NCBI GenBank assembly: GCA_035258845.1
Contig: DATFWX010000218.1
Span: forward strand, 17,354-81,353
Reading direction: 5' to 3'
Length of the DNA: 64,000 nt
DNA from: Polyangia bacterium
Lineage (GTDB): Bacteria; Myxococcota_A; Polyangia; JAHFDS01; DATFWX01
Part shown: positions 13,311 through 50,739 of the stretch, in pieces
Position numbering within the stretch: position 1 is the first letter of the stretch
Layout: each line of letters begins with the position of its first letter
Position numbers and translations under genes: made by a program
Notes under the pieces: model-generated
Told to the model about the DNA's origin: nothing
Databases searched by the model: none
What the model saw: only the letters and a program-made list of their open reading frames with translations

Positions 13311-13336
13311 GGTTGCTCCCTCCTTCGGCAGACGGG

Positions 13337-15756: not shown

Positions 15757-15824
15757 GTCGATGATAGGTCAAAGCTTCCCTGCAGCGACGCTCATCGTGA
15801 TGACGGACGCGGTCGTGGCCGCCA

Positions 15825-16079
15825 TCAGCCAACCATGTGAACGAGCCATCGCTTGAATTGAGGCCAGAGATTCAATCGCCCCACAACGCAAATGTCGCCG
15901 ACACGCAGGTCCTTTCCCTGCTCAAGTCGGTCTATCCCGTCTACGAGAGATTCATTCCACATGACCAGTATCGGAAATTCGTCGTTCTCGCGCAGGTTTC
16001 GAACAACTATCACATGGGTTGCGTCTTTCTCCCTGGCCTCTTGAAGCCAGCGCCGGATATCGGCGGCAGTCGCGAGCAT
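15825..16079 (-). CDS. small hypothetical protein in a lower-GC patch
   Basis: 84-aa ORF (..KDATHVIVVRNLRENDEFPILVMWNESLVDGIDRL..) in a ~300-bp stretch clearly lower in GC than its surroundings. The coding call is tentative. Confidence 0.3.
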   Translation of the reverse strand: MLATAADIRRWLQEAREKDATHVIVVRNLRENDEFPILVMWNESLVDGIDRLEQGKDLRVGDICVVGRLNLWPQFKRWLVHMVG

Positions 16080-16104
16080 TTCGGAACGCTATTTGAAATC
16101 AGCC

Positions 16105-32100: not shown

Positions 32101-32240
32101 CGCGCGAGCAGCTCGGGGGGCTGTGGCCAGGGCTCGGCGCGCACCGGGGCCAGGTCGACGACCGTTCCAGCCTCACTGCTCGCGGTCGAGCCGCTGCTCT
32201 CGCTGGAGCGACCCTCACCGTGTTCCCCAGAGCCCATCAC
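29142..32240 (-). CDS. Ser/Thr protein kinase with C-terminal TPR-repeat region
   Basis: Canonical Hanks motifs: GRGGMGAVY, VALK, HRDFKPDN, DFG, SPEQ. One TM segment. Roughly 600 aa of TPR-like repeats follow. Confidence 0.85.
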   Translation of the reverse strand: MMGSGEHGEGRSSESSGSTASSEAGTVVDLAPVRAEPWPQPPELLARGATLGRYVVLDRIGRGGMGAVYAAYDPELDRKVALKMVQPRRTRAQPQPAQQTRLLREAQALAQVSHPNVVAIHDVGSVGGQVFLAMELVEGETLRKWLETRPPPSEVLKVFVAAGRGLAAVHAAGLVHRDFKPDNVIIRRDGRVCIMDFGVVRAIERAATDERDLAAEPDLAPASEDEDASPIPYRDALVTPLTQAGAVVGSPPYMSPEQFRGHAVDARADQFSFCVALYEALNGQHPFERHPAGEADRWTLHPPRERRAPARVQRALVRGLSESPEARHPSMDALLAELLQVGRARWGKLVLAVALLLIAGFEAAAALRGRRAEQLGICGGASAADQLASVWSPSRKLALERAFLATGRSYAAEAWTRTARVLDDFASRWASVRAEACAAGLGVGGRSNSPLSLRMVCLERRRQELGALTDLLAQPDDQILEQSISAAHALTPVEQCLEVDAMHAPAPLPLDPVARKRSEQFGYALVRSKSLLDAGKYADGLKLVEPVAREAGPLGDRSLEAEALELKGSLQNKLGDLPAAEKTLMRAVWAGEASSQQVVVARASSTLVSVLYSQAKGELARQWSEPAVAALAGLKHDPSTEATVHMAIGGLLISEAKPLEAIEPLRRALALREKYLGLDHPDVGATESMLASAYRIAEQYDMAVPHARRALAIRERSLGARHPETARALFNMGVLFAELGRVSEALDYQRRALAAREAALGPQHPSTGRSWDELGVLQMELGRYQEALAAFGRADAVLSHGPRSSAVLSAWVNGHTGMALVRVGKPVEGLKLEQRALAVIEQVTPQDDHGAILLIEVARSLEALGRHAEALGFLQRALASSRRDRRESLAMQAAAREALGRWHLEGGHPEAALAELGQALALREHYLGRDNPGLAEALLGLGQAQLAQRAPTAAVAPLERALALLEHAGACAPERLSDTRFALARALWESGGDQRRAFALAGQARDSYPQSSNQRHLQEMATWLRKHPLAER

Positions 32241-32288
32241 CTGGGACGAGTATACTGGGGCCGGCCCCGCGCTGCCCAGAGCCCGCGT

Positions 32289-35661: not shown

Positions 35662-37062
35662 ATGAGTCCAGCGTCGGTTACAATAGGCCTGCCGATGTCC
35701 GCGGAAACTTTAGGCCAGGCCGTGCGCATCGTGGTGGGGGCAGCGAAGCAGCCCGAAACCCACGAGTTCATCTACGATCACCTGCCGATCCGAATCGGAC
35801 GTAACCCGCTCAACGAGCTGCAGCTCGATGACCGACATGTCTCACAATGGCATGCAGTGGTGCTCTACCTCGACGGTGCGATCCGGGTCGCAGATGTAGG
35901 CAGCCGCAACGGCACCTATGTCGACGGCCGTTCACTGACCGTGGGCGAGGCGGTTCCGCTGCTCGGATCGAGCCGCGTCGAGATCCGCCCGTTCACGCTC
36001 GAGGTCGATCCGCTCGATGAGCCCGCGGCCGCCAAGCCGCAGATGCTGCGCGCGCAGGGCCGGCAATGGGTCGATCACACGCGCACCTATGAAGCCGAGC
36101 AGGCGGAGTCCGACTCGGCCTCGACCTCGCTGGTGACGGCATGGAAGGCCGACCTGCTCTCGCAGCTGCGGCCGCTCTACCTGGCCTACGAGGGCGACTG
36201 GGCTTTCCTGTGCGATCGGCTGCGCGAGTACCTCGATCAGGTGGGGCCGCAGATGCGCCTGGCGCTGCTGCGCGAGCTGCAGGCCGAGCTGCCCGCGTAT
36301 CGTTGGGACAGTGCCTTTCCGGAGCTGCGCGCCGACGAGAAAACGCCCGCCCCCTCTTTCGACCCCGAGCATCCCGCGATGCCCGCATTGCGCGATCTGG
36401 CGGAGCATCTGATGGGACGCAAGCACGCGCTGGCAAGCCCCGCGGAGGTGATCGCGTTTTTGGCCCGCGTCCGCGACATCACCGACGTGTTTTTGCATTT
36501 TACGCACAGCCTGCTCAAGGGCTCGCGCCAGATCGAGTCGAGCCTCGCGATGCCGCTGTTCGAGCGCGAGAGCAACCCACTGCATCGCGTGCGGGACGTC
36601 GGCGATCTGGGTGCGCGCCTGTTGGATTTCGAGGCCGATCGAGAGGGTCGCGCGCCGCCCTGGCTCGAAGCCGCTTTCAAAAGTGTGCTCATGCAGCAGA
36701 TCGTGATGCTGAGTGGGATGATGAACGGTGTGCGCACGCTGCTCGACGAGCTGGCGCCCGAGCGGGTGGCCGAGGAGCTGAAGCTGGGCAAAAAGCGCGT
36801 GGGGCCATTCCGCGCCCAAAGACTGTGGCAGGCCTATCAGGCGCGCCACCGCCAGCTCAGCCAGGAGGATAAGGCCACCTTCGAGCGCATCTTTGGTCCC
36901 CATCTCGCGCGCGCGTACGACGAGATCATGGGTGAATGCTACGACTCGCGAGGAGCCGGCAGGCCCGGGACGGCGAGCCAGCCCGGGGGGGCCACGGGCC
37001 CGACCCGCGTCGTGGTGGGGCCGAAGGCGCGTGCCAGCCGCGGCGGCCGCAAGCCGCGCTAG
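35662..37062 (+). CDS. FHA-domain protein (T6SS Fha/TagH-like)
   Basis: N-terminal FHA domain (IRIGRNPLNELQLDDRHVSQWHAVVLYLDGAIRVADVGSRNGTYVDG) plus a ~350-aa C-terminal region. Lies immediately upstream of the PAAR gene and near tssM/tssL and a PpkA-like kinase. Confidence 0.75.
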   Translation: MSPASVTIGLPMSAETLGQAVRIVVGAAKQPETHEFIYDHLPIRIGRNPLNELQLDDRHVSQWHAVVLYLDGAIRVADVGSRNGTYVDGRSLTVGEAVPLLGSSRVEIRPFTLEVDPLDEPAAAKPQMLRAQGRQWVDHTRTYEAEQAESDSASTSLVTAWKADLLSQLRPLYLAYEGDWAFLCDRLREYLDQVGPQMRLALLRELQAELPAYRWDSAFPELRADEKTPAPSFDPEHPAMPALRDLAEHLMGRKHALASPAEVIAFLARVRDITDVFLHFTHSLLKGSRQIESSLAMPLFERESNPLHRVRDVGDLGARLLDFEADREGRAPPWLEAAFKSVLMQQIVMLSGMMNGVRTLLDELAPERVAEELKLGKKRVGPFRAQRLWQAYQARHRQLSQEDKATFERIFGPHLARAYDEIMGECYDSRGAGRPGTASQPGGATGPTRVVVGPKARASRGGRKPR

Positions 37063-37189: not shown

Positions 37190-37810
37190 ATGAGCCGGGG
37201 AGGCCGGCCCGCGGCCCACGTCGGGAGCAAGACCAATCACGGGATCACCAGCGCGGACAAGCAGACCGTCCACGTAGGGGGCCGGCCGGTCTCGTACGTC
37301 AACGCCCCGCATAGCTGCAAAATGCACAAGGGGAAAGGCCGCAAGGTCGCCTCGGGCGCCCCCACCGTGCTGGTTTACGGTGTGCCCGTGACCCGGGTCG
37401 ACGAGAAGATGACCTGCAGCTGCAAGGTTGTGGACGGCGTCCAGAACGTGCTGGTCGGCGACGCCAAGCCCGAGCTGGGCCCGCTCGAGCCGGTCGATCT
37501 CTGGATCCGCCTCGATCTGGACCCCCAGGCGGCGTCGGTGTGCTCGGATCGCTACATCCTGACCGCGTCGGACGGCTCGTATCGACGCCAGAAGATTGTG
37601 CTGTCCAACCACATTCCCAACCAAGAGACGGTCGACCTGCATTACCTGGGCTTGCATCGCAGCAAGAGCTACAGCCTGGAGGTGATCGAAGAAGGCGGAG
37701 CCTCCACGTTCGTGTTCCAGAACGTGCCGTACCCACAGCTGGCGGGGCTCAAGGGACCCGCGCGCACGCCCCCGCCCGCAGGCGGCGGCTCGTGCTCCTG
37801 CCATTCCTAG
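37190..37810 (+). CDS. PAAR-domain protein (T6SS spike tip) with C-terminal extension
   Basis: N-terminal PAAR-like repeats (HGITSADKQTVHVGGRPVSYVNAPHSC ... VLVYGVPVTRVDEKMTCSCKVVDG). Start trimmed to ATG 37190. A vgrG is nearby. Confidence 0.65.
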   Translation: MSRGGRPAAHVGSKTNHGITSADKQTVHVGGRPVSYVNAPHSCKMHKGKGRKVASGAPTVLVYGVPVTRVDEKMTCSCKVVDGVQNVLVGDAKPELGPLEPVDLWIRLDLDPQAASVCSDRYILTASDGSYRRQKIVLSNHIPNQETVDLHYLGLHRSKSYSLEVIEEGGASTFVFQNVPYPQLAGLKGPARTPPPAGGGSCSCHS

Positions 37811-37811
37811 C

Positions 37812-38591
37812 ATGGCGGTTGCGCTGACCAGCGATCTGCAGGGGCCCGACCATCCCGGTCCGACCGTCCACGTTCAGAAGAAGATCAAGCTGGTCATGTA
37901 CCCGGGCGAGTCCACCAACGCCAGCGGTACGACGCTCGGGCATATCTACGTGGTGGGCGGCAACGGCGAGTCGTACGAGATTGCGGCCGGGCCGCCGGCC
38001 GGATTCGCCGACCGGGGCGGCCACTCGGCCATCCCGACCCCGGCTGGCAAGTACGTGCTCGGTCCCAAGCACCATCACGTGACGCCGGGCTGGCCGGCTT
38101 CGACGGTGCCGTGGGGCGCCGATCTGCGCACCGACACAAACGGCGAGGTCGAGTTCTCGCCCGATGGCGGCAAGAGCTGGCGCAAGGCGACCGGGATGAA
38201 TGGCGCCACCACGCAGGCGTCGATTCGGTTCCTCGAGAAGGATTGGAAGCGGCCGCTGACCGAGGACGAGAAGCAGCAGGTGAACGCCCAGGCGCGCGGC
38301 TTGTTCTACGACGACACGGGCAAGCTGCAGACCCCTTATCGCGGCAACGACTTTGGCAACTGGGCCTGGAACCTGACCCGAGGCGGGGCGGTCACACCGT
38401 ATTACCTGCACACCACCCCACCCGACGAGGCCGCGAGCGCGGCCGGGCAGCCGGTCAGCCTGGTCAACTCGCACGGCTGCGTGCACATCCGCCCGGCCGA
38501 CCGCGACGAGATGATGCAGAAGGGCTATCTGCGGAAGGGCGTCGAGATCGAGGTCAAGCCGTACGGGCAGAAGGGTCCTCCCAAACCGTGA
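37812..38591 (+). CDS. putative T6SS effector with L,D-transpeptidase (YkuD) fold, Tlde1-like
   Basis: C-terminal ...YYLHTTPP...SLVNSHGCVHIRP matches the YkuD catalytic SHGC(V/I)R motif, with a His about 20 residues upstream. The gene starts 1 nt after the PAAR stop. No signal peptide. Confidence 0.5.
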   Translation: MAVALTSDLQGPDHPGPTVHVQKKIKLVMYPGESTNASGTTLGHIYVVGGNGESYEIAAGPPAGFADRGGHSAIPTPAGKYVLGPKHHHVTPGWPASTVPWGADLRTDTNGEVEFSPDGGKSWRKATGMNGATTQASIRFLEKDWKRPLTEDEKQQVNAQARGLFYDDTGKLQTPYRGNDFGNWAWNLTRGGAVTPYYLHTTPPDEAASAAGQPVSLVNSHGCVHIRPADRDEMMQKGYLRKGVEIEVKPYGQKGPPKP

Positions 38592-39484
38592 CGTCCCTGC
38601 GCGGGGTTCTGCTGCTCGTCATGCTGGGCGGGACTGGCCCGGCGGCGGCCGCCGATTCGACCTGTGGGGCGCGCAGCCGTGAGGTGGCGGCCTCGCTCGG
38701 GCGGGCCCGGCTGGCCATGTCGCCCGAGGCAGCGGTGCGGGCGAGCTTCGAGGGAGCCGTGCGCGCGCTCGCCGAGTGCGTGGGCGACGAGGAGCTGTGG
38801 TACCTGCTGGTGCGGTCGGCCGAGCTCGGCGGCGGCGTGTTCCCGACGCAGGTTGCGAATAGCACGGTCGCCGACCTCAAGGCCGCGGTCGAGCTGGCGG
38901 CGCGTCGGAATCCCAGGTCGGCGCGCATCGCGACCATTCGCGCGCGCGTGATCGGGGGTCTGCAGGCGGCGCGCCAGGCGGTCGCGCTCGATCCGGCCTA
39001 CGCACCCGCCCAAGTGACGCTGGCGGCCGCGCTGTTCGCGGCCCGCGACGCCAAGGCGGCCCGCAGCGTGCTGGCGGCGCGTACCGACCTCGCGCGCGTC
39101 CCGGGCGCGTGCGCGCTGCTGGCGCGGGCCTGTCTGGCCGAGGGCGACGCGAGCGAGGCCATCGCGGTCGCCGAGCGGGAGCCGGCCCCGAGCGCGCTCG
39201 ATCTCTACGAGCCCGGCGCCCGCGACGAGCGGCCCCGGCGCGATGCGGTCGAGGTGGCCGGGCTGGCGTACCTGCACAGCGGACAGTTCGACCCGGCGGC
39301 CCAGCGGCTGCTTCAGGCGGCGGCCGAGGGCTCAGCGGCTGCGCGCACCGCACTGGAGACCGGAAGCCCCGAGCTCCGGCGGGCGCTGGACCGGCTGGCC
39401 CGACGCAAGGGGCTGGCGCCGCGCGAACGGGCCCTGCTGCGCGAGCTCAAAACCCCACCGGCCCGCCGCACTCACCCCCAGTAA
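38588..39484 (+). CDS. putative periplasmic immunity protein (helical/TPR-like)
   Basis: GTG start overlapping the effector stop (GTGA). Signal peptide LLLVMLGGTGPAAAA. Ala/Leu-rich helical repeats. Immunity function is inferred from position only. Confidence 0.4.
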   Translation: MTSLRGVLLLVMLGGTGPAAAADSTCGARSREVAASLGRARLAMSPEAAVRASFEGAVRALAECVGDEELWYLLVRSAELGGGVFPTQVANSTVADLKAAVELAARRNPRSARIATIRARVIGGLQAARQAVALDPAYAPAQVTLAAALFAARDAKAARSVLAARTDLARVPGACALLARACLAEGDASEAIAVAEREPAPSALDLYEPGARDERPRRDAVEVAGLAYLHSGQFDPAAQRLLQAAAEGSAAARTALETGSPELRRALDRLARRKGLAPRERALLRELKTPPARRTHPQ

Positions 39485-39512: not shown

Positions 39513-40418
39513 TCAGGCGGCGGGCTCGCCGCCGCCCACGACGCCCTGATAGCTCGGGAAGTGATCGAGAAACACCTTCACCGAGGGAGCGCGCGCCATC
39601 GCGACCGCGTATCGGGGCGCCGGGTAGCCCTCGGCGAGCGCATCCGCGACGTCGGACATCCAGCCCAGCGTGGCGCGATAGTCCTCGAGCGGCCGGTGCT
39701 GATGCACGTACTCGTAGGCGACCTCTCCGTCGCGGGTGTCGATCGCGCACAGGATGGTCGCGCGCAGCCCGCCCTCGTGGCCCACCAGCGGATGCGTGGG
39801 CACGGCCAGCGCGGGCGCCGGTCGGATTTTCTCACGCAGCGGCCAGGGCAGAAGGCGCCAGGCTTTGCGCACCGCGTGGCTCAGCTCGCCCACCGCTGCC
39901 GCTGCCAGCACTGCCGCCTGCTGCGCCCCCGGCTGGCCGCGTACCGCTTGCTCGAGGTGCGCCAGAAAGCCCTCGAGCAGCTCGTCGCAGCCCGACAGCA
40001 CCCGGAACGGACGCTCGACGCCGCTCAAGATGAGCTCGAACAGGCCCTCGCATAGAATGGTCCGCACGTCTCCGGTGAAGCCGGGCGACAGCACGAACCG
40101 GCGCTCGTACAGGGTCGCCACCGGAAGGGTCGTGACCTGCAGGACGTAGGGCTCGGCGGCCCCGTCCGGATGCAGCACGAACTCGATCCAGCCTCGGATC
40201 CACTGCTGAGGCGCGTCCAGGTACAACTGATCCCGCACCTCGAGACGCCCGCCAAAGCTCTTGCGCAGGCGGCTCTCGAGCGTGCGGATCTCGTCGCCAC
40301 CGTCCGAGAGCCGGCCCAGGCACAGTCGGCCTACACCGACGTCGAAGAAGTCTCCATCCTTGCGCACGATCACGCCCACCACCTCGCGGTCGAGGATCTC
40401 ACTGAGGCGATCGTGCAT
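39513..40418 (-). CDS. hypothetical protein (T6SS-associated by position)
   Basis: 301 aa from MHDRLSEILD... Last gene of the minus-strand tssL-tssM operon. No recognisable motif. Confidence 0.4.
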   Translation of the reverse strand: MHDRLSEILDREVVGVIVRKDGDFFDVGVGRLCLGRLSDGGDEIRTLESRLRKSFGGRLEVRDQLYLDAPQQWIRGWIEFVLHPDGAAEPYVLQVTTLPVATLYERRFVLSPGFTGDVRTILCEGLFELILSGVERPFRVLSGCDELLEGFLAHLEQAVRGQPGAQQAAVLAAAAVGELSHAVRKAWRLLPWPLREKIRPAPALAVPTHPLVGHEGGLRATILCAIDTRDGEVAYEYVHQHRPLEDYRATLGWMSDVADALAEGYPAPRYAVAMARAPSVKVFLDHFPSYQGVVGGGEPAA

Positions 40419-41922
40419 CGGGCTCGTCGGGGCCTGGGGGGGCGGGCGCCGCCGCGGCGCGCATCCGGGGCGGCTTGGCCTTGCCGGACACCCAGACGCC
40501 GTGCAGCGCCAGCTCGGGCACACCGGTTTCGATGCGCCAGCCGCCCTCGCTTCGGGTCAGGATCACACTGTAGCCACTGCGCTTGCCCAGGGCCATAACG
40601 GTGCTTCCGCCACCGGCCGAAACCACTTCGTCGACCGGCAGCGTCTCCTGGGTCCAGCCGGCTGGACCCAGCACGAGCGCGGCGCCGCTCGACGAGACCA
40701 GCCCTTCTTCCCACTCCCAGCCGCTCCAGCCGCCCAGGATGGCGCCCACCGGGGGCACGCGGCCGTCGCGCGACCAGCGCCCACGCGAAAACAGCATGAC
40801 CTCGGCGCCCGCCTCCGACCCGCCGGCCGCGATCACGGTGCCGCCGACCGCGCTGATGCGATGGACGGTGGCCGCCACCGGCAGCTCCAATCGCTTCCAG
40901 CCGTAGCCGTCGAAGTGCACCACGTAGCCGCCCTCCTCGCCGATGTACACGTCGCCGGGGCGGCTCGAAAAGATGCAGCGCAACGAGCCCCGGCTCGGCA
41001 CCTCGACCCGCCGCCACCCGGCGTGGTCGAGCACCAGCACGGTGCCCTGGTCGCCCACCGCGCACAGCGAATTTTCATCGAGCGGCCAGAGCGCATGAAG
41101 GTCGGCCGTGGTCGGCGCCTGCAGGCGCCGCCAGCGACCGTCGCGCAGCTCGGTCACGGCGCCGCCCGCGCCCACCGCCAGCGCCCGGTCCTGAAAGCCG
41201 CACACCGCGCGCAGCTCGGCGTCGCAATCCGAGCTCATCAGCTTCCACACGCCATCGAAGCGGCCGAGCGCGGTCCCGTAGGCGCCCACCGCGAGTGCGT
41301 CCGCGCGCCGGTCCTCGGCCGCCTGACCCTCCGCCACCAGCAGAAATTCCTCGAGATAGCTCTGGCACCCGGTGAGCCGGCCCAGCAGCGGCTCGGGCGC
41401 CGAGGCCGCCGACGCGGTGGCCAGATCGACGCCCAGCTTGGCAAACAGCGGGCCCGCGTCCGTCCACGGCAGCCCTTCGCGGACCGACTTCCAGGCATCG
41501 CACAGATCGGTCAGCCGCTGCAGAAGCGCGCGCGCCTGGCCGACCTCGAGCCCCCGAAACAGCGCGACCGGAAACAGGGCCACCCGGCCCCGTTCGCTGC
41601 GCTCGAGCGCCCGCACCAGAAGCGCGCACGCGCTGCGCAGCCCATCGGCCTGCGCCGGGATCTTGGCCGCCAGCGCCTGCAGGCGCTCGCTCGCCACCCC
41701 AACCGGGCTGCATGCGAAGAAACACGCCACTCCGCCGGCGTCGGCCACCTCGGTCTCGTCGTAGTCGAAAAGAGCAGTCCAGAGCGGCGGTACATCGCCC
41801 TGGGTCAAGGCCACCGCCGCCTGCGAATGCGTGGCCACGGCCAGCGCCTCCGACTTGGAGGCAACCGCCAGAAGTCGCAGCTCGGGAGCCAGCGGGGGCG
41901 CCTTCTCGGCGGATCGAATCAT
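40399..41922 (-). CDS. hypothetical protein with beta-propeller-like repeats (T6SS-associated by position)
   Basis: 507 aa. C-terminal repeated G-x-x-G-x-V-x-x-DG-x-W-x-R blocks. Start codon 1 nt after the tssM stop. Confidence 0.45.
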   Translation of the reverse strand: MIRSAEKAPPLAPELRLLAVASKSEALAVATHSQAAVALTQGDVPPLWTALFDYDETEVADAGGVACFFACSPVGVASERLQALAAKIPAQADGLRSACALLVRALERSERGRVALFPVALFRGLEVGQARALLQRLTDLCDAWKSVREGLPWTDAGPLFAKLGVDLATASAASAPEPLLGRLTGCQSYLEEFLLVAEGQAAEDRRADALAVGAYGTALGRFDGVWKLMSSDCDAELRAVCGFQDRALAVGAGGAVTELRDGRWRRLQAPTTADLHALWPLDENSLCAVGDQGTVLVLDHAGWRRVEVPSRGSLRCIFSSRPGDVYIGEEGGYVVHFDGYGWKRLELPVAATVHRISAVGGTVIAAGGSEAGAEVMLFSRGRWSRDGRVPPVGAILGGWSGWEWEEGLVSSSGAALVLGPAGWTQETLPVDEVVSAGGGSTVMALGKRSGYSVILTRSEGGWRIETGVPELALHGVWVSGKAKPPRMRAAAAPAPPGPDEPDARSPQ

Positions 41923-41923
41923 G

Positions 41924-44900
41924 TCATCGCACCTGCGCGGGACAGGTCAGCGGGGGCGGACGCTGCAGCGGATTGGCGGTCCGCTCGGGCCGGATGTCGA
42001 GCCGCACCTGGGCTCCGGTCTTGAGCGTCCACGTGAGCTGGTAAATTCCACCGCTCGCCTTGACCATGTGGGCCGCATCAAACAGGTGAAACGGTGCCCA
42101 TTCGCCCTGGAACTGCAAGGCATCGATGACGCCGTTCGCTCCGGCCACGCTCAGGCGCGCGCCGTGCTTCTTGGTCGCCGACGGCCACTCGTAGTGCCAG
42201 CGCTCCTCGGGCGTGTTGCGGAACGTGTTCTTCTTGCCCTCGATCTCGAGGGTCAGCGCGCCCACGTTGCTGCCCACCGGCTGCGGCCGCACCTCGAACG
42301 CGAACTGCGGGGTGGCGGCGCCGGTAGGAAACAGCGCGTTCTGCCACATGGCGGCACTGTGCAGACAGGAAAGGAGCGAGCCCGAGAACATCTTGCCGTA
42401 GCGCGGCTCGGGACGAAAGATGACGCCGTCGCGCGGCAGATAGCGCGCCAGATGTTGGTCGTAATGCTTCCACAAAAGGCCGTTCTCGCGCAGAAACTCG
42501 CTGGAATCGGCGATCGTCGCATCCGGTCCATGATGCGCGAACGGATAGCGCCCGGCGATGCTGTTCGAGTAGGCCGAAAAGACCCCTTGACCCCACGACC
42601 CCGACAGCCGGTCGCTCGAGGTCCTGATGGTGGTCTGGGTCGACAGCGAGACCGGCTGCTCGAATAGCTGCCCGACCATCGAGCGCGTCTGCTCGTCCAT
42701 GGCCTCGTTGAGCAGGCGCTGCGTGAACTCCTGGGCGGCCCGGGTCTCGTCGCTGGCCTTGGTCGATTCGCCGGCGCCCATCTCCTGCTCCGAGCGCATG
42801 GCCGTGCCCAGCCGGGACAGGACGGCCAGATACTGCCCGAGCGGCGCGTCGGCCTTGCCGGGCGGCTGACCGGTCAGGCTGCGGATGCGCGCGAAATCCG
42901 ACTCCAGAGGAGCCACGATCTTGGGCAGGTCGGGCGGACGCATGCCCAGCCCGGCGTCGGGCAGGCCCAGGCGGCCCTCGATGCGGCCCTCCACCTTGGA
43001 GGTCAGCCGCCGCAGCGCAGCGTCCTCGGGCTCCTCGTCGGGCGGAATCGAGGTTTCGTCGATCACGTGCTTGAACAGGCGCACGTAGGGCGGATTGTCC
43101 CCGGTCAGGACCTGGATGTCGCGCAGCATGTCGTGCGGATTTCCGGTCGGGCGCACGGACAGGCCCCGCAGAAAGCTCTTCCAGGCGGCCGCGTAGCTGC
43201 GGAAATAGGCGGCGTAAAGGGCCTCGCGCGCCACGTCATGGCCGCTCGCGCAGTCGGTGGCCAAAACCCACGAGTCCTCGGACATGCGCGAGCGCACCTC
43301 GCGCAGGCGCCGTCTCACGAACTGCTCCCAGCCTCGGCGCGTGTAGCAGCCCGGCACCGAGCCGGCGGAGCGCACCACGGTCTGCACCAGGCCGTCGAGC
43401 GCATCGTTGAGCTCGAACGGCCGCACGCGGCTCTTCGCCTCCGCAATCGCCTCCTCGACCATGGATTCGTCGGCGCGAGCGCGCAGAAGCGAGGAGCGCG
43501 CGCCTGCGACCAGCGCCTCGTCGGGCGCCTGCGGCAGCTTTCCGTGCGCGATGGCGCCGCTCAGCATGCGCAGGTGCGGGCTCAGCTGCATGTCGGACGG
43601 CAGGCTGCGCCGCCGACGCAGAAAATCCTTCCACAAGGGCAAGAGCTGGCGCTCCAGGAACCCGCGATCGATGTGCTTCTTGCATTGCCCGTCGGCCAGC
43701 ATCAGATAGGTCTTGAGCGTGTCGAAATCCTCGCGGTACGACTCGGGTGTGCGGCGACCGCCGCCTCCAATCCAGGACAACCGCTCCTCGAGCATGGCGG
43801 TGACCGGACGGGTCAGGATGGTCGCCAGCTCGGTGAAGTAGAATCGTTCCACCGGCGGTTGGAGAATGCGCCCGCGAAACATCCCAAAGCCCAGCGACAG
43901 CGGCGGCCCGTCGGCGTTCCAACCCTCGATTTCCTCGAGCTGCGCGCGCAGCTTGTCGAGCCGCTCGAAGTCTTCGGCCGTCCGGTCGGCCTCGCCCCAG
44001 GGCACCTTGGCCACCTGACGGCTGTTCTCCTTGACGTCGGCGGAAAGACGCAGGTTGCTGTAGCCGGACACGATGCCGCCCAGCAGGATGAGGCCGCCCA
44101 GCGTGCCCGCGACCGCCGAAGCCACCATCTGCACGCGTGAGCGCGCGCGCCTTTGACCCAGCGACAGCCCGGCCAGATCGCCGTCGGGGAAGATGACCCG
44201 CGTGAACAGATCGTGCAAGAAGTAGCTCTTGCGCTCACGCTGGCCCTTGAACAGGTTTTCGACCGCGCGATCGGGCAGCCCGAACACTCGCCCCACCTCG
44301 CTCATCACGCGGTCGATGGGGCGGCCTTCCTGGGTGCCGCTGGTAAAATAGACGCCGCGCAGGATGGGCACCTGCTGGTACGGGTTGGGCCGGAACAGCT
44401 GTTGCAGGAAGTAGAGCAGATCTTCGCGTTGGCGCGCGAACTGGCGCGGGAACTGGAACACGGCCTCGCGCACCTCCAGCTCCGTCTCCTGCGACACCCG
44501 GTACAGCATGCGCTCGTACAGCTTGTCGCTCAAAAGGTCGAACTCGCGCGCGCACGCTTCCTCGGGATGCGCGGGCGTGTCGAGCGGCAGCGTGAAGCCC
44601 AGGATCTGCCCGGCGTCGCGGCCCATGTCGCCGAAGTACTCGACGAAACCGCGCAGAAGGTCGCTCTTGGTCACGAGCACGTAAGCGGGCAGGGTCAGCT
44701 CCAGCTTCTCCATGATCTCGCTCATGCGAGCGCGCACCTTGGCCGCCATGTCGCCGAGCTCGTTGCGGGGCGCGCCTAGCGACGGCACCGGCACCGCAAC
44801 CATGATGCCGTTGAGCGGCCTTTTGCGCCGATGCTTCTTGAGCATCTGCAGAAAGGCGACCCACTCCTCGGCGTCCTCGTCCTCGATCATGTAGCGGCCC

Positions 44901-45403
44901 GCGGTGTCGAGCAGGATGGCCTCGTCCGCGAACCACCAGGTGCAGTTGCGCGTCCCGCCCATGCCGCGGATGCCACGCGCGCCTGTGGGCAGGTAGGGGA
45001 ACGACAAGCCCGAGGCCAAAAGAGCGGTCGATTTGCCGGCCGAGGGCGGGCCCACGATCATGTACCAGGGCAGCGCATACAGCGCGGCCTGGCCTCGTCC
45101 GCGGCCCAGCGAGGAGCGCTTGAGCGCGCTCAGGGCGCGCTTCATCTCGCTTGCCAGCGCAGCGATCTCCTCGCGCCGGTCCGGGTGCGCCGCGCCCGGC
45201 TCCTCGATCCCCTTCTCGATCGCGCGCGCGCGCCGCACCCGCACGATGCGGCGCCAGATGAGAAGCACGATGAACGGGACCCAGATCAGCGCCAAGATCA
45301 GCAGGCGCAGAAGCACGCTCGAGAGCCCCAGGGGCGGCCCGAACAGCCAGATTAACAGCGACACGAAGACGAGAGCGACCAGGAGGAGGATGATCTTGAG
45401 CAT
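41924..45403 (-). CDS. tssM: type VI secretion membrane protein TssM (IcmF family)
   Basis: Three N-terminal TM helices, Walker A (GPPSAGKST), and a long periplasmic IcmF-like C-terminal region. Start taken at MLKIILLL (45401-45403). The longer ORF call adds an N-terminal extension that would overlap tssL. Confidence 0.8.
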   Translation of the reverse strand: MLKIILLLVALVFVSLLIWLFGPPLGLSSVLLRLLILALIWVPFIVLLIWRRIVRVRRARAIEKGIEEPGAAHPDRREEIAALASEMKRALSALKRSSLGRGRGQAALYALPWYMIVGPPSAGKSTALLASGLSFPYLPTGARGIRGMGGTRNCTWWFADEAILLDTAGRYMIEDEDAEEWVAFLQMLKKHRRKRPLNGIMVAVPVPSLGAPRNELGDMAAKVRARMSEIMEKLELTLPAYVLVTKSDLLRGFVEYFGDMGRDAGQILGFTLPLDTPAHPEEACAREFDLLSDKLYERMLYRVSQETELEVREAVFQFPRQFARQREDLLYFLQQLFRPNPYQQVPILRGVYFTSGTQEGRPIDRVMSEVGRVFGLPDRAVENLFKGQRERKSYFLHDLFTRVIFPDGDLAGLSLGQRRARSRVQMVASAVAGTLGGLILLGGIVSGYSNLRLSADVKENSRQVAKVPWGEADRTAEDFERLDKLRAQLEEIEGWNADGPPLSLGFGMFRGRILQPPVERFYFTELATILTRPVTAMLEERLSWIGGGGRRTPESYREDFDTLKTYLMLADGQCKKHIDRGFLERQLLPLWKDFLRRRRSLPSDMQLSPHLRMLSGAIAHGKLPQAPDEALVAGARSSLLRARADESMVEEAIAEAKSRVRPFELNDALDGLVQTVVRSAGSVPGCYTRRGWEQFVRRRLREVRSRMSEDSWVLATDCASGHDVAREALYAAYFRSYAAAWKSFLRGLSVRPTGNPHDMLRDIQVLTGDNPPYVRLFKHVIDETSIPPDEEPEDAALRRLTSKVEGRIEGRLGLPDAGLGMRPPDLPKIVAPLESDFARIRSLTGQPPGKADAPLGQYLAVLSRLGTAMRSEQEMGAGESTKASDETRAAQEFTQRLLNEAMDEQTRSMVGQLFEQPVSLSTQTTIRTSSDRLSGSWGQGVFSAYSNSIAGRYPFAHHGPDATIADSSEFLRENGLLWKHYDQHLARYLPRDGVIFRPEPRYGKMFSGSLLSCLHSAAMWQNALFPTGAATPQFAFEVRPQPVGSNVGALTLEIEGKKNTFRNTPEERWHYEWPSATKKHGARLSVAGANGVIDALQFQGEWAPFHLFDAAHMVKASGGIYQLTWTLKTGAQVRLDIRPERTANPLQRPPPLTCPAQVR

Positions 45404-45404
45404 G

Positions 45405-46304
45405 TCAGCGACCCTGTGCTTCGCCGTACTCCTTGAGCTGCGTTGCCGTGTCGGTGGCGCTCTTGTCCGAGAGCTGGGCCAGGCCAAACAAGAGCACCAG
45501 CACCCCGACCACGGCCAGGGCCACGGTGGCGAAGCCGGGCAGCCGCCGCTTCTGCGCGGGCGCCGTGTCGGGGCGCTCGCCATGGGGCGACAGCGACGGG
45601 CTGGTGCGCCGTCCGCGCTGCGGCAACACCTCGCGCCGAACTTCCTCGAGCAGCACGGCCAGCTCGGGCGTCGAGCCCAGCCGATAGCGGCCCTCGAATC
45701 CCAGGGCCAGGCACAGGTAGTACACCTCCAGCGCCTGGGCGGCGTCGCGTGCCTTCCGGATCTGGTCCAGATGCTGGAAAAACACCTCGCCGGCGATGTT
45801 TTCCGCAAAATACTGGATCTGCAGGGGCTGCTTGACCCAGTCGTCGCGGACCGGGGACTTGGTGTGCAGGATGGTCTCGTCGATCAGAGCGACCAGCCCA
45901 TACCGAGCGTGCTCGACCTCGGTGGGCGAGATCTGGTACTCGACCGCATCGGTGTCGAGCTGATCGAACAGCTCCTTGAGCTTGCGTGCCAGCAGGGAAG
46001 CCGCCGGTACCTCACCGGTCGTGCGGATACGCAGGACCAGCGAGAAAAAGTCCATGCAGAGCTGCGCCAGCCGCGGGGTCGAGCTCTCCTCCTCGTCCGC
46101 CGGCTGGGGCCGATCCATGCCGAGCGCGGACGCCCACCAGCGCGCATTCCGCGGGGGCTCGCTCATGGGCGGCGGACGCCGCGGCTCGTCCTCGGCACGC
46201 CCGCCCGCGCCCGCACCGTCGAACGACGCGGGTCGGGTCGAGCGGGCTCGGCCGCCTTGAGCTCCGGCAGGGCCGCGATCAGAGCGCCGATAGCCCGACA
46301 TCAC
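45405..46304 (-). CDS. tssL: type VI secretion protein TssL (DotU family)
   Basis: Cytoplasmic DotU-like domain (..LVALIDETILH.. YYLCLALGFEGRY) followed by a single C-terminal TM helix (VALAVVGVLVLLFGLA). Immediately upstream of tssM. Confidence 0.7.
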   Translation of the reverse strand: MMSGYRRSDRGPAGAQGGRARSTRPASFDGAGAGGRAEDEPRRPPPMSEPPRNARWWASALGMDRPQPADEEESSTPRLAQLCMDFFSLVLRIRTTGEVPAASLLARKLKELFDQLDTDAVEYQISPTEVEHARYGLVALIDETILHTKSPVRDDWVKQPLQIQYFAENIAGEVFFQHLDQIRKARDAAQALEVYYLCLALGFEGRYRLGSTPELAVLLEEVRREVLPQRGRRTSPSLSPHGERPDTAPAQKRRLPGFATVALAVVGVLVLLFGLAQLSDKSATDTATQLKEYGEAQGR

Positions 46305-47887
46305 TCCCTCGTGGGCTCGAGCGTGACGTCAATCGCGATCTGCTGACCTGGCTGCAAGGTCACCTCCCGCTCCACCGTGCGATAACCAGGGGCTGCCACC
46401 ACCAACCCGTGGGCGCCCGGCTCCTTGGTTTCGATACGCGCCCGCCGGACCGATCGCGCTACCATTTGGTGGTCGAGCCAGATCCGCGCCTCCACATTGA
46501 CCTTTAGTGTAATCACGCTGGGCTCGTGCCCTGGGGTGGGCGGCGTGTTGAGCTGCATCGGCGGCATGGATGGTCGCGCGCTCGACCCATCCCTGCCGTC
46601 CCAACGCTGATACAGCGCCCAGCCGGCCAGGATGACGCCCACACCCACCGTCAACGCGAGCAGGAACAAGAACACCGGCGAGATCCGCTCGTGCTCGGGC
46701 GCGGCCGTCACCTCGCGGCGCGGCTCCGGGGTGAGGCTCAGCTCGGGCTCGAGCTCGGGCTCGAGCTCGGGCTCAGGCTCGAGCTCGGGCTCAGGCTGGA
46801 ACTCGAGCTCGGGCTCGCGCTTGGGACCGGGACTGAGCACCCGCGCACCCGGCGACGAACCGCTCGGCGGCGACGGGCGCATGAGCGCGGGAGCCGGGTT
46901 GCGAACGATGGGGCCGGCCGGCCGCCGCACGGTTCGCGACCGCCGGGGCTCGGGCAGCTGCTGGTCGGGCGGAAGAACTTTGGTCTCGCCCACGCCCGCG
47001 AACGGGTTGAGCGCGCGCCGCGAAGGCGACGAGCCCGGCTCCTCGGGCAGGGAGGCGCTCTGATCGAGCAGCTGATCGCGCACATCCTGCACGGTCGGGC
47101 GCTTTTGCGGATCCTTGTCGAGCATGCGTAGGAGCAGGCGCTCGAGCTGCTGCGGGATGTCGGGCCACAGCTCGCGCGGCTCTGGCTCCACCACCGAGTG
47201 GGCCTTCACGGGACGGCGCCCCAGCAGCATCTCGAACGCCATCACACCGAGCGAGTAGACGTCGGATTCGGGGCTGATCGCGAGCGCGTGCGTCTGCTCC
47301 GGGGACGCGTAGGCAGCCGCGCTGAGCACCACGGTGGGCGCATTGTACGCGCGGTCACCGGACAGCAACTTGGCGATGCCCACATCCGCCACCTTCACCA
47401 GATCGAACCGGGTGGGCAAGAGAATCAGGAAAACATTGCTGGGATGGAGCCCTCCGTGCGCCACGCCCTGGCCATGGCAGAACTCGAGGCCATCGCACAC
47501 CTGCACCAGGATGTCGATCGCATCCAGGTGGCGCAGTCTGCGGTCACGCATCCGCGCGGCCAGCGTCTCCCCCTCGATCCAGTCGCGGATGACGTAGAAG
47601 CAGCCATCGGGCAGAGTCCCGAAGGCCAAAACATCCGCGAGGTTCGGGTGCCGGATGCGGTTCAGGATCCGGACTTCATCGAGAAAGCAGTGCACCGCGC
47701 CAGGGGGCAGACCGGCCGAGATGATGCGGAGTGCCACTTCTTTGCCCACGGAGGGCTGTCGCGCGCGGTAGACAGCGCTAAGCGCGTCCTCCGCGATCTT
47801 GTCATGCACCTGGTAGTCGACCGCAAACTCTCGAGGAACCCCAGGGCTCGGTAGGTCCCCAGCAGCCGGCCGCTCCCTCATCGCCAT
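46301..47887 (-). CDS. PpkA-like Ser/Thr pseudokinase with periplasmic C-terminal domain
   Basis: Kinase fold present but catalytic signatures are degenerate. Gly-loop IAEDALSAVY (no GxGxxG). VALR instead of VAIK. HGGLHPSN instead of HRDLKPxN. DVG instead of DFG. APE retained as SPE. A PEPELE tandem repeat is followed by a TM helix (VFLFLLALTVGVGVILAGWAL) and a ~100-aa C-terminal domain. Confidence 0.7.
   Translation of the reverse strand: MAMRERPAAGDLPSPGVPREFAVDYQVHDKIAEDALSAVYRARQPSVGKEVALRIISAGLPPGAVHCFLDEVRILNRIRHPNLADVLAFGTLPDGCFYVIRDWIEGETLAARMRDRRLRHLDAIDILVQVCDGLEFCHGQGVAHGGLHPSNVFLILLPTRFDLVKVADVGIAKLLSGDRAYNAPTVVLSAAAYASPEQTHALAISPESDVYSLGVMAFEMLLGRRPVKAHSVVEPEPRELWPDIPQQLERLLLRMLDKDPQKRPTVQDVRDQLLDQSASLPEEPGSSPSRRALNPFAGVGETKVLPPDQQLPEPRRSRTVRRPAGPIVRNPAPALMRPSPPSGSSPGARVLSPGPKREPELEFQPEPELEPEPELEPELEPELSLTPEPRREVTAAPEHERISPVFLFLLALTVGVGVILAGWALYQRWDGRDGSSARPSMPPMQLNTPPTPGHEPSVITLKVNVEARIWLDHQMVARSVRRARIETKEPGAHGLVVAAPGYRTVEREVTLQPGQQIAIDVTLEPTRE
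46738..46815. repeat. 12-bp tandem repeat (ctcgggctcgag / ctcaggctcgag, ~6 units) encoding (PELE/PEPE)n linker
   Basis: Read directly at 46741-46815. Lies within the pseudokinase gene, just upstream of its TM segment in protein coordinates. Confidence 0.7.
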
Positions 47888-47979
47888 ATCCAGAAGGAGA
47901 ATCTACTTCGGCCAAGGCTTCGGGTCAATTCGGGAAATAGGCGATCGACAGATGTGGGCCCGACACCTATAATCTCCCC

Positions 47980-48778: not shown

Positions 48779-50524
48779 TCAGCAGTTCAGCTTGACCATA
48801 CCGCCCTTGATGTCGTTGACGTTCTGCGCAACCGCATCGATGTCGGGCGCCGTGATGCTGATCCGGTCGGGCGTGAGAACGACTTTCGAGTTGCCGACCT
48901 GGATCTCGATCCGATCGGTCGCGGTGAGCGAGATGGTCTTGGCGGAGTGCTTGGCGTCGTTGACGACTTCGGTTTCCCAGTCGTGTCCGACCTGCATCCG
49001 GCTGTCTTTCTGCGCGCGGATGTAGACCTCCTCCGAGCCCGCCGCGTCTTCGAACCGCAGCTCGTTGTGCCCGTTGTTGCCCGGCGACGAGCTGGTCATG
49101 ATGGTCGAGATGGTCTTGGACTTGGGCAGATCGTAGGGCACCGGGTGGGAGCCGTTGTAGGTCTGGCCGACGATGACGGGCCGATCGGGATCGCCTTCCA
49201 GAAACTGGACCAGCACCTCCTGACCCACGCGAGGGATGAAGATGGCGCCCCAGCGTGCGCCTGCCCACGCCTGCGCCACCCGGATCCAGCAGGAGCTGTC
49301 GGGGTTGTCTCCGCCGCCGCGGTCCCACCGGAAGCGCACCTTGACGCGGCCGAACGAATCGACGTCGATCTCCTCGCCCGCCTTGCCCACGACTTCGGCC
49401 GAGTGGAGCCCGAGGACGATTGGACGCGGCGTGACGCGTGAAGGCCGGTACAGAACAGCCGCGCCGTCGTTGCCCTTGTCCTTGGTCGGCACCGCCAAGA
49501 AGTCGTTGGAATACCCGAGCGCGCCGCCGGCGTGGTTGACCGACTCGACCAGATACTCCTGGTTCAAGTCTTCGCGCGGGTAGCGCAGGCCCTCGTGAAC
49601 TGCGTCCCCCAGATCGAAGGTCAGGCCCGGCACCAGGCGGTTGCAATTGCTGTGACCGTGACCCGTGAACTTGGTGGCCTGGAGCTCTTCGAGGCGCACC
49701 TTGGCCAGGCGGGACGCCAGATCGGTGTCGACGCACTCGGCCGGATAGTCGTAGATCTGCCCGGCCGCCTCCTGCGCCGCGGCGGTGGCACCCACATCCA
49801 GACGCGGGCTCTTGAAGCTGTAGTCGCGCAGCGTGACCTGGTGCGGCCGCAGATCCTTGCGGAACGTCAGATCCCAGATCGAATCGAGGTCCTGCGACAT
49901 CCCGTGCTCGGGCGTATAGGCGATGGCGGCGTCGGTCTTGCTTTCGGAGATGGAACGGAAACCTGATACGTCGTCGGTGCAGACCATCTTCAGGTGGTCT
50001 TGGCTGTGCTCGAAGTAATAGGTGATGCCCTCTTCCTCGAGCAGGCGTGAGATGAACTCGAGATCCTGCTCGCGATACTGCACGCAGTAATCGCGCGGCG
50101 TGTAATTGGCCTTGAGCTTCCACTCCACCTCGGTCTGGATGCCGCCCTTCTGCAGCACGTCGGTGACGACCTGGCGGGTCGTCTTGTGCTGGTAGATGCG
50201 CAGGTTTCGGTTGAGCGACAGCCTGAGCAGCGGCGGCGTCAGCACGACCCGGTTGACCACATAGTTTTCGAGCGGTGTGCGCTCGTTGGCGATGGTTTGT
50301 ACGCGGAAGATGACACCGTGCACGTTCCGGGTGGCCTGGCGCCCGGGAACGATCAGGCAGCCCTTCTTTCCCAGCATGGATTCGAACGGATAAGACAATG
50401 GGAGCAAGAGGTCGATGTGAAACTGGTAGGGTGTCGAAAGCGCCTCGGTCCCCGAAAAGCTCTGGACACGAATCTGCTCGTCGGACCCTTCGACCGTGAA
50501 ACGAAAAGGGAATTGCAGTTGCAT
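48779..50524 (-). CDS. vgrG: type VI secretion spike protein VgrG (TssI)
   Basis: gp27-like N-terminal and gp5-like OB-fold regions (..VLTPPLLRLSLNRNLRIYQ.., ..GRVKVRFRWDRGG.., ..RVAQAWAGARWGAIFIPRVGQEVLVQFLEGDPDRPVIVG..). No long C-terminal effector extension. Confidence 0.85.
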   Translation of the reverse strand: MQLQFPFRFTVEGSDEQIRVQSFSGTEALSTPYQFHIDLLLPLSYPFESMLGKKGCLIVPGRQATRNVHGVIFRVQTIANERTPLENYVVNRVVLTPPLLRLSLNRNLRIYQHKTTRQVVTDVLQKGGIQTEVEWKLKANYTPRDYCVQYREQDLEFISRLLEEEGITYYFEHSQDHLKMVCTDDVSGFRSISESKTDAAIAYTPEHGMSQDLDSIWDLTFRKDLRPHQVTLRDYSFKSPRLDVGATAAAQEAAGQIYDYPAECVDTDLASRLAKVRLEELQATKFTGHGHSNCNRLVPGLTFDLGDAVHEGLRYPREDLNQEYLVESVNHAGGALGYSNDFLAVPTKDKGNDGAAVLYRPSRVTPRPIVLGLHSAEVVGKAGEEIDVDSFGRVKVRFRWDRGGGDNPDSSCWIRVAQAWAGARWGAIFIPRVGQEVLVQFLEGDPDRPVIVGQTYNGSHPVPYDLPKSKTISTIMTSSSPGNNGHNELRFEDAAGSEEVYIRAQKDSRMQVGHDWETEVVNDAKHSAKTISLTATDRIEIQVGNSKVVLTPDRISITAPDIDAVAQNVNDIKGGMVKLNC

Positions 50525-50739
50525 GACGTCTCCTCCCGGGCTTGTCCGCTGGTCCTACGGGCAGTGTAGCACCCCCCATCGGGCGGGGTGGCAGGGAACA
50601 CTTTTCGGGGTTCCGGGAAACGTGCGCTCGCTCACCGTTGGAGCTTTCAGCCGCCGTGGCTAGCGCGTGCGTTTATATCAAGGTAGCATGTCCGCCGCAC
50701 CAACCGCGACATCACCAAACCATCAACCAGGAGCGCACC

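Follow-up and report, generated by a model that had tools for sequence, protein, structure and literature searches.

To our knowledge, type VI secretion system (T6SS) effectors that rewire peptidoglycan with an L,D-transpeptidase fold are represented by one family, Tlde1/DUF2778, of the alpha-, beta- and gamma-proteobacteria. PAAR proteins cap the VgrG spike of this system. The Tlde1 effectors (Tae5-7) make up the DUF2778 clade, which is set apart from four YkuD clades, and are known from the same three proteobacterial classes together with immunity proteins that are either DUF2195 or small and unannotated (10.1101/2020.02.18.954545; PMC9638812). A short spacing between the catalytic His and Cys is a stated hallmark of DUF2778 relative to YkuD (10.1101/2020.02.18.954545). 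Zhang et al. 2012 predicted Tox-LD-peptidase polymorphic toxins linked to T6SS and the type II secretion system, delta-proteobacteria included, and described them as domains that end RHS/ZU5 proteins and are paired with immunity of the Imm16 or Imm57 type (PMC3482391). The locus considered here lies in a 64,000-nucleotide stretch of contig DATFWX010000218.1 from a Polyangia bacterium (the window, meaning the whole stretch analysed) and consists of three adjacent genes encoding a PAAR protein, a YkuD-type enzyme of 259 amino acids (aa), termed the effector, and a 298-aa helical protein, termed the partner. A literature search found no description of a YkuD-type T6SS effector in Myxococcota, in agreement with an earlier note on this DNA that knew of no such cassette in Myxococcales.

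It is likely that the three genes constitute a T6SS cargo cassette composed of a PAAR-ADP carrier, a YkuD toxin and an exported immunity protein, where ADP is a working name for the conserved C-terminal domain (~85 residues) of the PAAR protein. The features of the cassette are as follows.

37190..37474, + strand: PAAR domain, residues 1-95 of the 206-aa spike-tip protein (PF05488; NCBIfam T6SS_PAAR_dom, E 8.7e-7)
37499..37744, + strand: ADP domain, a C-terminal beta-sandwich (residues ~104-185) without a Pfam family, proposed cargo-docking module
37745..37810, + strand: C-terminal tail, rich in Pro, Gly and Cys, at the end of the PAAR-ADP protein, with the stop codon, read from the sequence; not conserved in other ADP carriers
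37812..37886, + strand: N-terminal leader of the effector (residues 1-25, GPDHPGPTVHV), predicted to be disordered alone; predicted local distance difference test score (pLDDT) 48-61 over residues 1-20
37812..38591, + strand: 259-aa YkuD-fold putative peptidoglycan-targeting T6SS effector without a signal peptide
38409..38480, + strand: catalytic segment His200...Ser220-His221-Gly222-Cys223, invariant in 47 members and the sole region that hhalign could align to Tlde1
38588..39484, + strand: 298-aa exported TPR-like helical partner, putative periplasmic immunity protein, with a signal-like N-terminus and homologs downstream of the effector elsewhere

The window has a G+C content of ~70% and most of the listed open reading frames (ORFs) are shadows; real genes were chosen by third-position G+C. 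The three genes of the cassette lie end to end on the + strand at 37190-37810 (206 aa), 37812-38591 (259 aa) and 38588-39484 (298 aa). Reading of the sequence places the PAAR gene start at ATG 37190, preceded by AAGGG 5-9 nucleotides (nt) upstream. Its stop TAG (37808-37810) is followed by a single C and the effector ATG at 37812, the first possible start codon of that frame. The effector stop TGA (38589-38591) overlaps the partner start GTG at 38588, and the partner stop is at 39482-39484. With a +1 nt gap and a 4-nt GTGA overlap, the PAAR, effector and partner genes are translationally coupled, and the three features of the cassette are far beyond chance; the effector-partner pair occurs again in 21 independent loci. 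The PAAR domain matched PF05488 with 47.4 bits (cut-off 27, E 2.3e-12, residues 24-81). Proteins identical to the effector and partner are already present at NCBI for a Polyangia metagenome-assembled genome (MAG), where they are annotated as 'L,D-transpeptidase family protein' and 'hypothetical protein VKN99_20280'.

The effector matched the Pfam YkuD family (PF03734) with 27.1 bits against a cut-off of 23.4 (E 7e-6), residues 49-237 aligning onto model positions 20-137 with a long insertion, and its relatives scored 29-32 bits. The active-site stretch reads ...YYLH(200)TTPPDEAASAAGQPVSLVNS(220)HGC(223)VHIRP, in which H200, S220, H221, G222, C223 and H225 are invariant across 47 family members; the catalytic Cys223 is the only Cys in the protein. 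The gap between His and Ser is 19 residues (H-x19-SHGC), one beyond the published range of H-x(15-18)-[S/T]-H-G-C-h. The protein has no hydrophobic segment, the maximal Kyte-Doolittle mean over 19 residues being 0.56. Since no match at E<=10 was found among PDB sequences for the effector or partner (phmmer) or for the family profile, a comparison of folds was required. The AlphaFold2 model of the effector, built on 47 relatives, had a pLDDT of 93.7 and a predicted TM-score (pTM) of 0.86, and the Foldseek matches of the model were solely L,D-transpeptidases and the L,D-carboxypeptidase Pgp2. The model indicates that the effector has a predicted YkuD/L,D-transpeptidase beta-sandwich fold with intact catalytic residues. 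Approximately 110 of the 259 residues superpose on the YkuD core, the remainder forming a conserved elaboration with helices at 132-145 and 151-165, hairpins and the invariant residues W94, S97, G128, G131 and F181; a conserved insertion of ~70 residues is adjacent to the active site. These results bear out the proposals of the earlier note that a PAAR protein is followed 1 nt past its stop by a signal-less 259-aa protein, that this protein carries the YkuD catalytic signature H...SHGCVHIR and that structure prediction would give an L,D-transpeptidase fold, as they do its reading of the next gene as overlapping the stop and encoding a helical protein with a signal-like N-terminus.

The cassette had also been said to match the Tlde1 class, an interpretation that was right in kind as to the PAAR protein, the fold and the exported helical partner but wrong as to the family. 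For comparison, a set comprised of Tlde1a and eight Tlde1b/c-type sequences out of a published alignment was used. The Tlde1_dom family (PF10908) gave no match to the effector at E<=10, while the scanned Tlde1b/c sequences scored 98-115 bits and Tlde1a 24 bits. Alignment of the 47-sequence effector family with the Tlde1 set by hhalign covered 34 columns, the catalytic motif only, with a probability of 41%, and the family profile found nothing at E<=10 among PDB sequences that included 7UMA. The distance from His to Cys is 23 residues in the effector (H200-C223) versus 10 in Tlde1a (H121-C131), and Tlde1a is not the closest structural neighbour of the effector model. Membership of the Tlde1 family was rejected on these grounds and on the type of immunity protein. 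As judged from sequence comparisons, the effector is a YkuD-superfamily analogue of Tlde1 that stands outside the Tlde1 family; by analogy, it probably works like Tlde1 but from a different YkuD clade.

Relatives of the effector numbered 51, were 40-54% identical and were nearly all metagenomic. In GTDB species genomes 36 loci were detected, 28 of the close family and 8 of a more distant clade, spanning Myxococcota, Acidobacteriota, Planctomycetota, the Proteobacteria Bradyrhizobium sp. STM 3557 and Rhodanobacter sp. L36, and others. Linkage to T6SS genes and to the partner was counted over 34 distinct close-family loci with a 10-kb neighbourhood. T6SS genes were present within 10 kb in 11 of these loci, the window included, and relatives occur within complete T6SS clusters in Acidobacteriota and Rhodanobacter. 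Five acidobacterial clusters (L015, L016, L017, L022 and L027) have the order TssE-TssF-TssG-ClpV-effector-VgrG-PAAR(M91), and L005/6 has the order ClpV-effector-partner-VgrG-PAAR(M91). The effector-partner pair of Rhodanobacter sp. L36 (L024) is located between TssM/TssL and TssF/TssG/ClpV, and in L033, L034 and L041 the effector-partner locus is next after VgrG. In a rough tree, the T6SS-linked copies fall in three separate clades.

The catalytic core of the family is constant and the N-termini vary: some members have no extension, others a domain of ~105 aa ('MANFGKYANLS..GW'), a leader rich in His ('QQYRSARPAGH'), a domain together with a Sec signal peptide, or an eCIS_core/DUF4157-like region. 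Sequence comparison suggests that the effector acts as a polymorphic-toxin module, with delivery parts that differ between phyla and are either joined to it or encoded ahead of it. The ~105-aa domain (MANFGKYANLS.HGW...HFLITAL..G) was seen in L009, L012, L013, L014, L024, L026, L029 and L030 and in P0007, P0015, P0027 and P0044, and had no Pfam match; since it is present on the Rhodanobacter copy within a T6SS cluster, it may be another delivery domain. The distant clade is 25-32% identical and includes L035, L036 and L038 versus L037, L039, L040 and L043. The 'HFYPG' opening strand is at the extreme C-terminus in some distant members (e.g. ...FEVHFYPGLNQIKIVGVR and stop), which suggests a circular permutation of the first beta-strand.

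The partner is helical, contains 24% Ala and has a signal-like N-terminus (MTSLRGVLLLVMLGGTGPAAAA followed by D); the 11 residues at 4-14 have a hydropathy of 2.18, and AAAA stands directly before the D. It gave only sub-threshold TPR matches, with no Pfam match over cut-off, no NCBIfam match and no PDB sequence match, consistent with the earlier statement that it resembles no known Tldi. Assignment to Imm16, Imm57 or DUF2195 was rejected, the Pfam scan having given no matches (for Imm16 and Imm57, none at E<=0.1). A word-indexed search with the partner found 3 relatives only, and the family was recovered from DNA flanking the effector homologs. By HMM (hidden Markov model) searches of this flanking DNA, a partner homolog was located directly downstream of the effector in 21 of the 34 loci. 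Pairwise identity in the partner family is 30-50%. In 16 of 20 loci the partner start and the effector stop share exactly 4 nt, and in two further loci 13 nt; a hydrophobic signal-like N-terminal segment is present in 19 of 20 partners. Nine residues are invariant and C26 and C64 are conserved, which fits the disulfide expected of a periplasmic protein.

Toxin/immunity loci are characterized by displaced toxin ends beside retained immunity genes. In L031, L033, L034, L041 and L042 (at approximately position 10000 in each) the effector is a 5'-truncated remnant consisting of the C-terminal catalytic part only. The partner is kept beside the remnant in all five, intact in four and frameshifted in L041, and three of the remnant loci (L033, L034 and L041) are immediately downstream of VgrG. 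The remnants with retained partners conform, as far as the gene sequences tell, to an orphan-immunity pattern, and this retention is the strongest comparative argument for the partner being an immunity gene. The results point to the partner as the exported immunity protein of the effector.

The earlier note had correctly recognized the PAAR protein but overlooked that the protein has 206 aa rather than ~95, with ~110 residues beyond the PAAR domain (residues 1-95), and that the C-terminal domain recurs upstream of the effector family elsewhere. Residues ~100-194 match the C-terminal end of the protein whose gene directly precedes the effector in L001 (E 1.5e-27) and in L002 (E 1.2e-12), where the N-termini of the carriers are not PAAR. 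A word-indexed search with the C-terminal extension returned nothing, and an exhaustive HMMER search returned 159 ADP cluster representatives. ADP is nearly always the last domain of the protein, at times in 3-5 tandem copies, arrays that fit a binding module and not an enzyme. Among 104 ADP proteins scanned, PAAR was found in 7, Tox-PAAR-like in 1, VgrG in 2, LysM in 10, PG_binding_1 in 5 and OmpA in 3; the remaining carriers had NlpC/P60-like or DUF5675-like domains or unknown N-termini. CarboxypepD_reg was matched weakly, and by only 5 of the 104. No sequence match of ADP to TTR, MIX, FIX or DUF2345 was found, and in Pfam (E<=1) the N-termini of the carriers matched none of the T6SS adaptor families that are known. 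ADP is an undescribed beta-sandwich domain without a Pfam family.

A dedicated HMM detected ADP in five and only five effector loci (the window, L001, L002/3, L008 and L020), each time encoded immediately ahead of a short-form effector. The P0025 contig likely provides a sixth instance; there, an upstream 525-aa PG_binding_1 gene matches the ADP carrier P0077 in sequence. A leader of the form GPxRxG..V.[VI] is present in 6/6 ADP-linked effectors and in 0/5 ADP-less short-form effectors; in the monomer model its confidence is low. For the L002 effector (P0040, 233 aa) the start that was called probably lies too far downstream (L002:7944-8000), as the in-frame sequence upstream of it, VTYKLSNASIAGPNRSGHVVHVKPP, matches the leader of P0025 and P0026. 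In L008 (2617-6693), from a Myxococcales MAG, the ADP carrier upstream of the effector is a protein of 1358 aa in which a large, unknown N-terminal part is combined with OmpA-like and PG-binding-like regions.

Further ADP loci were found with a hand-made degenerate DNA pattern. Eight of these have different downstream genes, and specificity of ADP for the YkuD effector was rejected. In several of the eight the downstream gene is followed by a further signal-peptide or helical-repeat gene: the carrier precedes a HExxH metalloprotease-like protein and then a HEAT-like protein in L045, a LysM/PG_binding/VanY-like protein and then a signal-peptide protein in L046, and a large unknown protein and then a membrane or signal-peptide protein in L047-L049. 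ADP is also fused to an N-terminal DUF5675-like region in P0108 (255 aa, E 0.005), DUF5675 being weakly matched by a Tlde1b/c sequence as well, and to NlpC/P60-type Cys-peptidase-like proteins in P0122 and P0124. From these fusions ADP seems generally associated with cell-wall-active enzymes.

Comparable loading devices have been described. Transthyretin-like (TTR) sandwiches at the C-terminus of VgrG load cognate effectors (PMC6684961), a MIX co-effector is co-secreted with a toxin in a 'binary effector module' (PMC8728615), and stand-alone LysM proteins in vgrG loci experimentally bridge VgrG and the downstream effector, PG_binding_1 being among the same recruitment-domain families as LysM (PMC10673891). 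It is tentatively proposed, as a possibility somewhat short of even, that ADP is a widespread cargo-docking domain with a role like that of MIX, FIX, RIX and TTR, which would capture separate cell-wall-targeting toxins via a short leader and define two-gene modules of carrier and cargo in soil phyla (Myxococcota, Acidobacteriota, Planctomycetota and others).

The proposed mechanism is as follows. The PAAR domain of the 206-aa protein, membership of which in the PAAR family is observed, would cap the VgrG spike as established for PAAR proteins. The ADP sandwich would hold the 259-aa enzyme, probably via the disordered leader GPxRxG..V.V, such that the enzyme rides the spike tip; this loading step is suggested by the order of the genes, by how the domains are arranged and by the fact that leader and ADP occur together. 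Firing would deliver the enzyme to the periplasm of a neighbouring Gram-negative cell, where Cys223 as the nucleophile, together with His200, would attack peptidoglycan stem peptides at the L,D bond. By comparison with Tlde1a, Csd6, Pgp2 and the L,D-transpeptidases (Ldts), the enzyme would likely act as an L,D-carboxypeptidase that shortens tetrapeptides to tripeptides and/or exchange D-amino acids, or else cleave 3-3 cross-links, and would thus starve or weaken cross-linking. In the producer, the 298-aa partner would be Sec-exported, would probably contain a C26-C64 disulfide and would bind and block the enzyme in the periplasm, a role suggested by its signal peptide, by conservation of the 4-nt overlap and by its persistence beside decayed effectors.

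The cassette sits in a partial T6SS cluster comprised of TagH/FHA, TssM, TssL, kinase and VgrG genes, and the T6SS context that had been supposed is thereby present in the window as well as in the complete clusters of relatives. The genes of the cluster are listed below.

35662..37062, + strand: T6SS FHA protein, TagH-like, directly upstream of the cassette (PF20232 T6SS_FHA_C, E 1.2e-15; FHA, E 9e-12; TIGR03354, E 3e-23)
41924..45808, - strand: TssM/IcmF, maximal ORF (IcmF-related_N, E 3.7e-79; IcmF-related, E 5e-52; IcmF_C, E 1.4e-17)
45405..46304, - strand: TssL/DotU (PF09850, E 1.6e-47)
46301..47902, - strand: Ser/Thr kinase with a PEGA domain, in a PpkA-like cluster position (Pkinase, E 4.6e-32; PEGA, E 1.6e-6)
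48779..50554, - strand: VgrG spike, candidate partner of the PAAR protein (Phage_GPD, E 7.9e-71; Phage_base_V; Gp5_trimer_C)

The true start of TssM is probably near MLKIILLL, ~150 codons into the maximal ORF. Two minus-strand genes at 39513-40421 (302 aa) and 40399-41922 (507 aa) are directly downstream of TssM and face the cassette; neither product has a Pfam or NCBIfam match, and the C-terminal half of the 507-aa protein is repetitive and Gly/Trp-rich. They may be lineage-specific T6SS accessory proteins. The cluster is surrounded by three Ser/Thr kinases, a TPR-rich one of 1032 aa and another of 673 aa (29142-34310, - strand) and, within the cluster itself, the PEGA kinase at 46301-47902 (- strand), which together with the TagH-like FHA protein suggests control of the T6SS of the window by threonine phosphorylation. 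The interval between the PEGA kinase and VgrG contains a gene for a 275-aa protein (47941-48768, + strand) with high third-position G+C and no family match. Farther upstream, the region at ~6200-16100 has a lower G+C content (0.60-0.66 versus ~0.70) and carries genes for an anti-sigma-like protein with zf-HC2 (9073-10089) and for a caspase-like protein of the Peptidase_C14 family (10086-11663), along with several ORFs that match no family; it may be a foreign island.

Several points weigh against a delivered toxin with docking through ADP. Toxicity, secretion, substrate, reaction type, immunity by binding and loading through ADP and the leader are all what we infer. Sheath, tube, baseplate and ClpV genes were not found among the window ORFs scanned, so a functional T6SS in this MAG is an assumption. 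Other than in the window, four of the five ADP-linked effector loci have no T6SS genes within 6-10 kb, and the eight metagenomic ADP loci have neither a YkuD effector nor T6SS markers in the short DNA present. The six leader-bearing effectors represent 2-3 deep lineages and not six independent events, and the correlation of leader with ADP is accordingly suggestive and not proof. The fold of ADP is a generic beta-sandwich with a generic fold match; such a sandwich, co-occurring with peptidoglycan-binding and -cleaving domains, could bind the wall. Sec signal peptides occur on four relatives, one of which (L052) has no partner gene, indicating that some family members are not T6SS cargo. Synteny of L052 with the window was considered and rejected, there being a weak FHA match only. 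A partner homolog was not found within 10 kb in 13 of the 34 loci. These include the five acidobacterial clusters, in which the effector is intact (QSHGCVHLLP; in L015 at ~10000-10790) and ~130 nt from VgrG, although the syntenic L005/6 has a partner. Loci without a partner are awkward for a self-toxic periplasmic enzyme; the immunity gene may be elsewhere, be non-homologous or be unnecessary there.

The main live alternative concerns ADP. The enzyme would still be a T6SS toxin, but ADP would be a module that binds the cell wall or envelope and tethers the carriers to target peptidoglycan, the enzyme reaching the spike otherwise, for example by direct binding to VgrG or Hcp. The company of LysM, PG_binding_1 and OmpA, the NlpC/P60-like and DUF5675-like fusions, tandem arrays such as many binding modules form, and several conserved Asp residues that could provide a site for Ca2+ or a ligand are all in accord with wall binding. 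However, the window copy has lost several of these Asp residues (KTVKDDQVPGD replaced by QKIVLSNHIPNQE), and LysM and PG_binding_1 in vgrG loci are bridges between VgrG and effector rather than wall anchors (PMC10673891). Nor does wall binding account for the invariable place of ADP as the final domain encoded by the gene that immediately precedes the enzyme, or for the special leader that the ADP-linked effectors have in common. A wall-binding role is considered unlikely, at rather longer odds than docking.

A second alternative accepts delivery of a toxin but places the substrate elsewhere than the D-Ala4 of stem peptides, for example in the tether of Lpp or outer-membrane proteins to peptidoglycan (as a DpaA/LdtF-like amidase) or in 1-3 cross-links. 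The unusual motif after the catalytic Cys (C-V-H(225)-I-R-P, with His225 invariant) is in its favour, and the ~70-residue conserved insertion with W94, S97, G128, G131 and F181 could reshape substrate choice; a substrate of this kind nevertheless appears quite unlikely.

TagX and MltE open or remodel the wall for the T6SS membrane complex. The YkuD protein could in principle be the producer's own peptidoglycan remodeller at insertion of this complex, with the TPR protein as a periplasmic regulator, as would suit the conserved position between ClpV and VgrG in acidobacterial clusters without a partner gene, the Sec signal peptides on some relatives and the NCBI annotation as merely an L,D-transpeptidase family protein. 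Yet the effector and most relatives lack a signal peptide or membrane anchor and could reach their own periplasm only via a secretion system, and housekeeping Ldts normally bear a peptidoglycan-binding domain of their own. The position 1 nt after a PAAR gene, the variable N-terminal delivery modules with an eCIS-type region among them, the patchy distribution across phyla and the five loci where the enzyme has decayed and the partner is kept also argue against a remodeller, which we regard as improbable. Finally, it is very improbable that the C-terminal domain of the PAAR protein is itself the toxin of a PAAR-toxin fusion with the two downstream genes as immunity or accessory functions, since, although many PAAR proteins have a C-terminal toxin domain followed by an immunity gene and ADP is always C-terminal, ADP is a ~85-residue beta-sandwich without a catalytic-looking constellation that is found in arrays of 3-5 as well as on proteins with LysM or OmpA, the enzyme active site of the downstream protein is invariant and this protein mostly occurs without ADP, and the third protein is exported where the partner of a PAAR-borne cytoplasmic toxin usually is not.

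The reading of the locus as a T6SS cargo cassette with a delivered YkuD toxin brings forward three new elements, a non-DUF2778 clade of YkuD effectors, a TPR-like family of putative immunity proteins and the ADP carrier domain. A second clade, of the classical YkuD type, has apparently been turned into a weapon in soil phyla that have received little study, offering a second independent system for how the L,D-transpeptidase fold turns toxic and how it is inhibited. The effector-immunity part is open to direct test in two cultured carriers, Rhodanobacter sp. L36 and Bradyrhizobium sp. STM 3557. If ADP docks cargo on PAAR, VgrG and LysM carriers, it would constitute a new mode of effector loading and a searchable marker of toxins in genomes without known markers such as MIX, FIX or DUF4123, and the class would have its first pair of cargo and immunity protein in the YkuD effector and the TPR-like partner.

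The comparison with known systems can be drawn as follows. Like Tlde1/Tldi1, the effector is a small T6SS-linked enzyme without a signal peptide that has an L,D-transpeptidase-type fold and an H...[S/T]HGC motif, is encoded in a bicistron with a Sec-exported (here putative) immunity protein and has orphan immunity genes (10.1101/2020.02.18.954545; PMC9638812). Unlike Tlde1, it has 259 aa with the ~70-residue conserved insertion versus 173 aa, has one Cys and therefore no disulfides, occurs in Myxococcota, Acidobacteriota and Planctomycetota and is apparently delivered via a PAAR-borne domain, whereas an Hcp route is proposed for Tlde1; the partner is a ~300-aa TPR-like protein, not of the DUF2195 or small Tai6/7 type. 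In contrast to the housekeeping YkuD enzymes (LdtMt2, Ldtfm and YcbB; Csd6, Pgp2 and Bd1075), with which its identity is 14-22%, the effector has no signal peptide and no LysM, PG_binding or NTF2 fusion, has the H-x19-SHGC spacing and His225 in place of the usual residue after Cys-x, and belongs to a family found in T6SS or polymorphic-toxin contexts. With the Tox-LD-peptidases it shares an L,D-peptidase domain with H, S and C in a toxin-type architecture and a linked putative immunity gene, but it is free-standing or has small N-terminal modules and differs from them as described; RHS was seen in none of the loci. ADP resembles the TTR, MIX and LysM adaptors in that it ends PAAR or VgrG proteins or is carried by a stand-alone protein encoded just upstream of an enzyme gene, all three forms of encoding being represented. 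It differs from the TTR, MIX and FIX adaptors in that it is also fused to peptidoglycan hydrolase-like domains, and as a docking domain it is putative.

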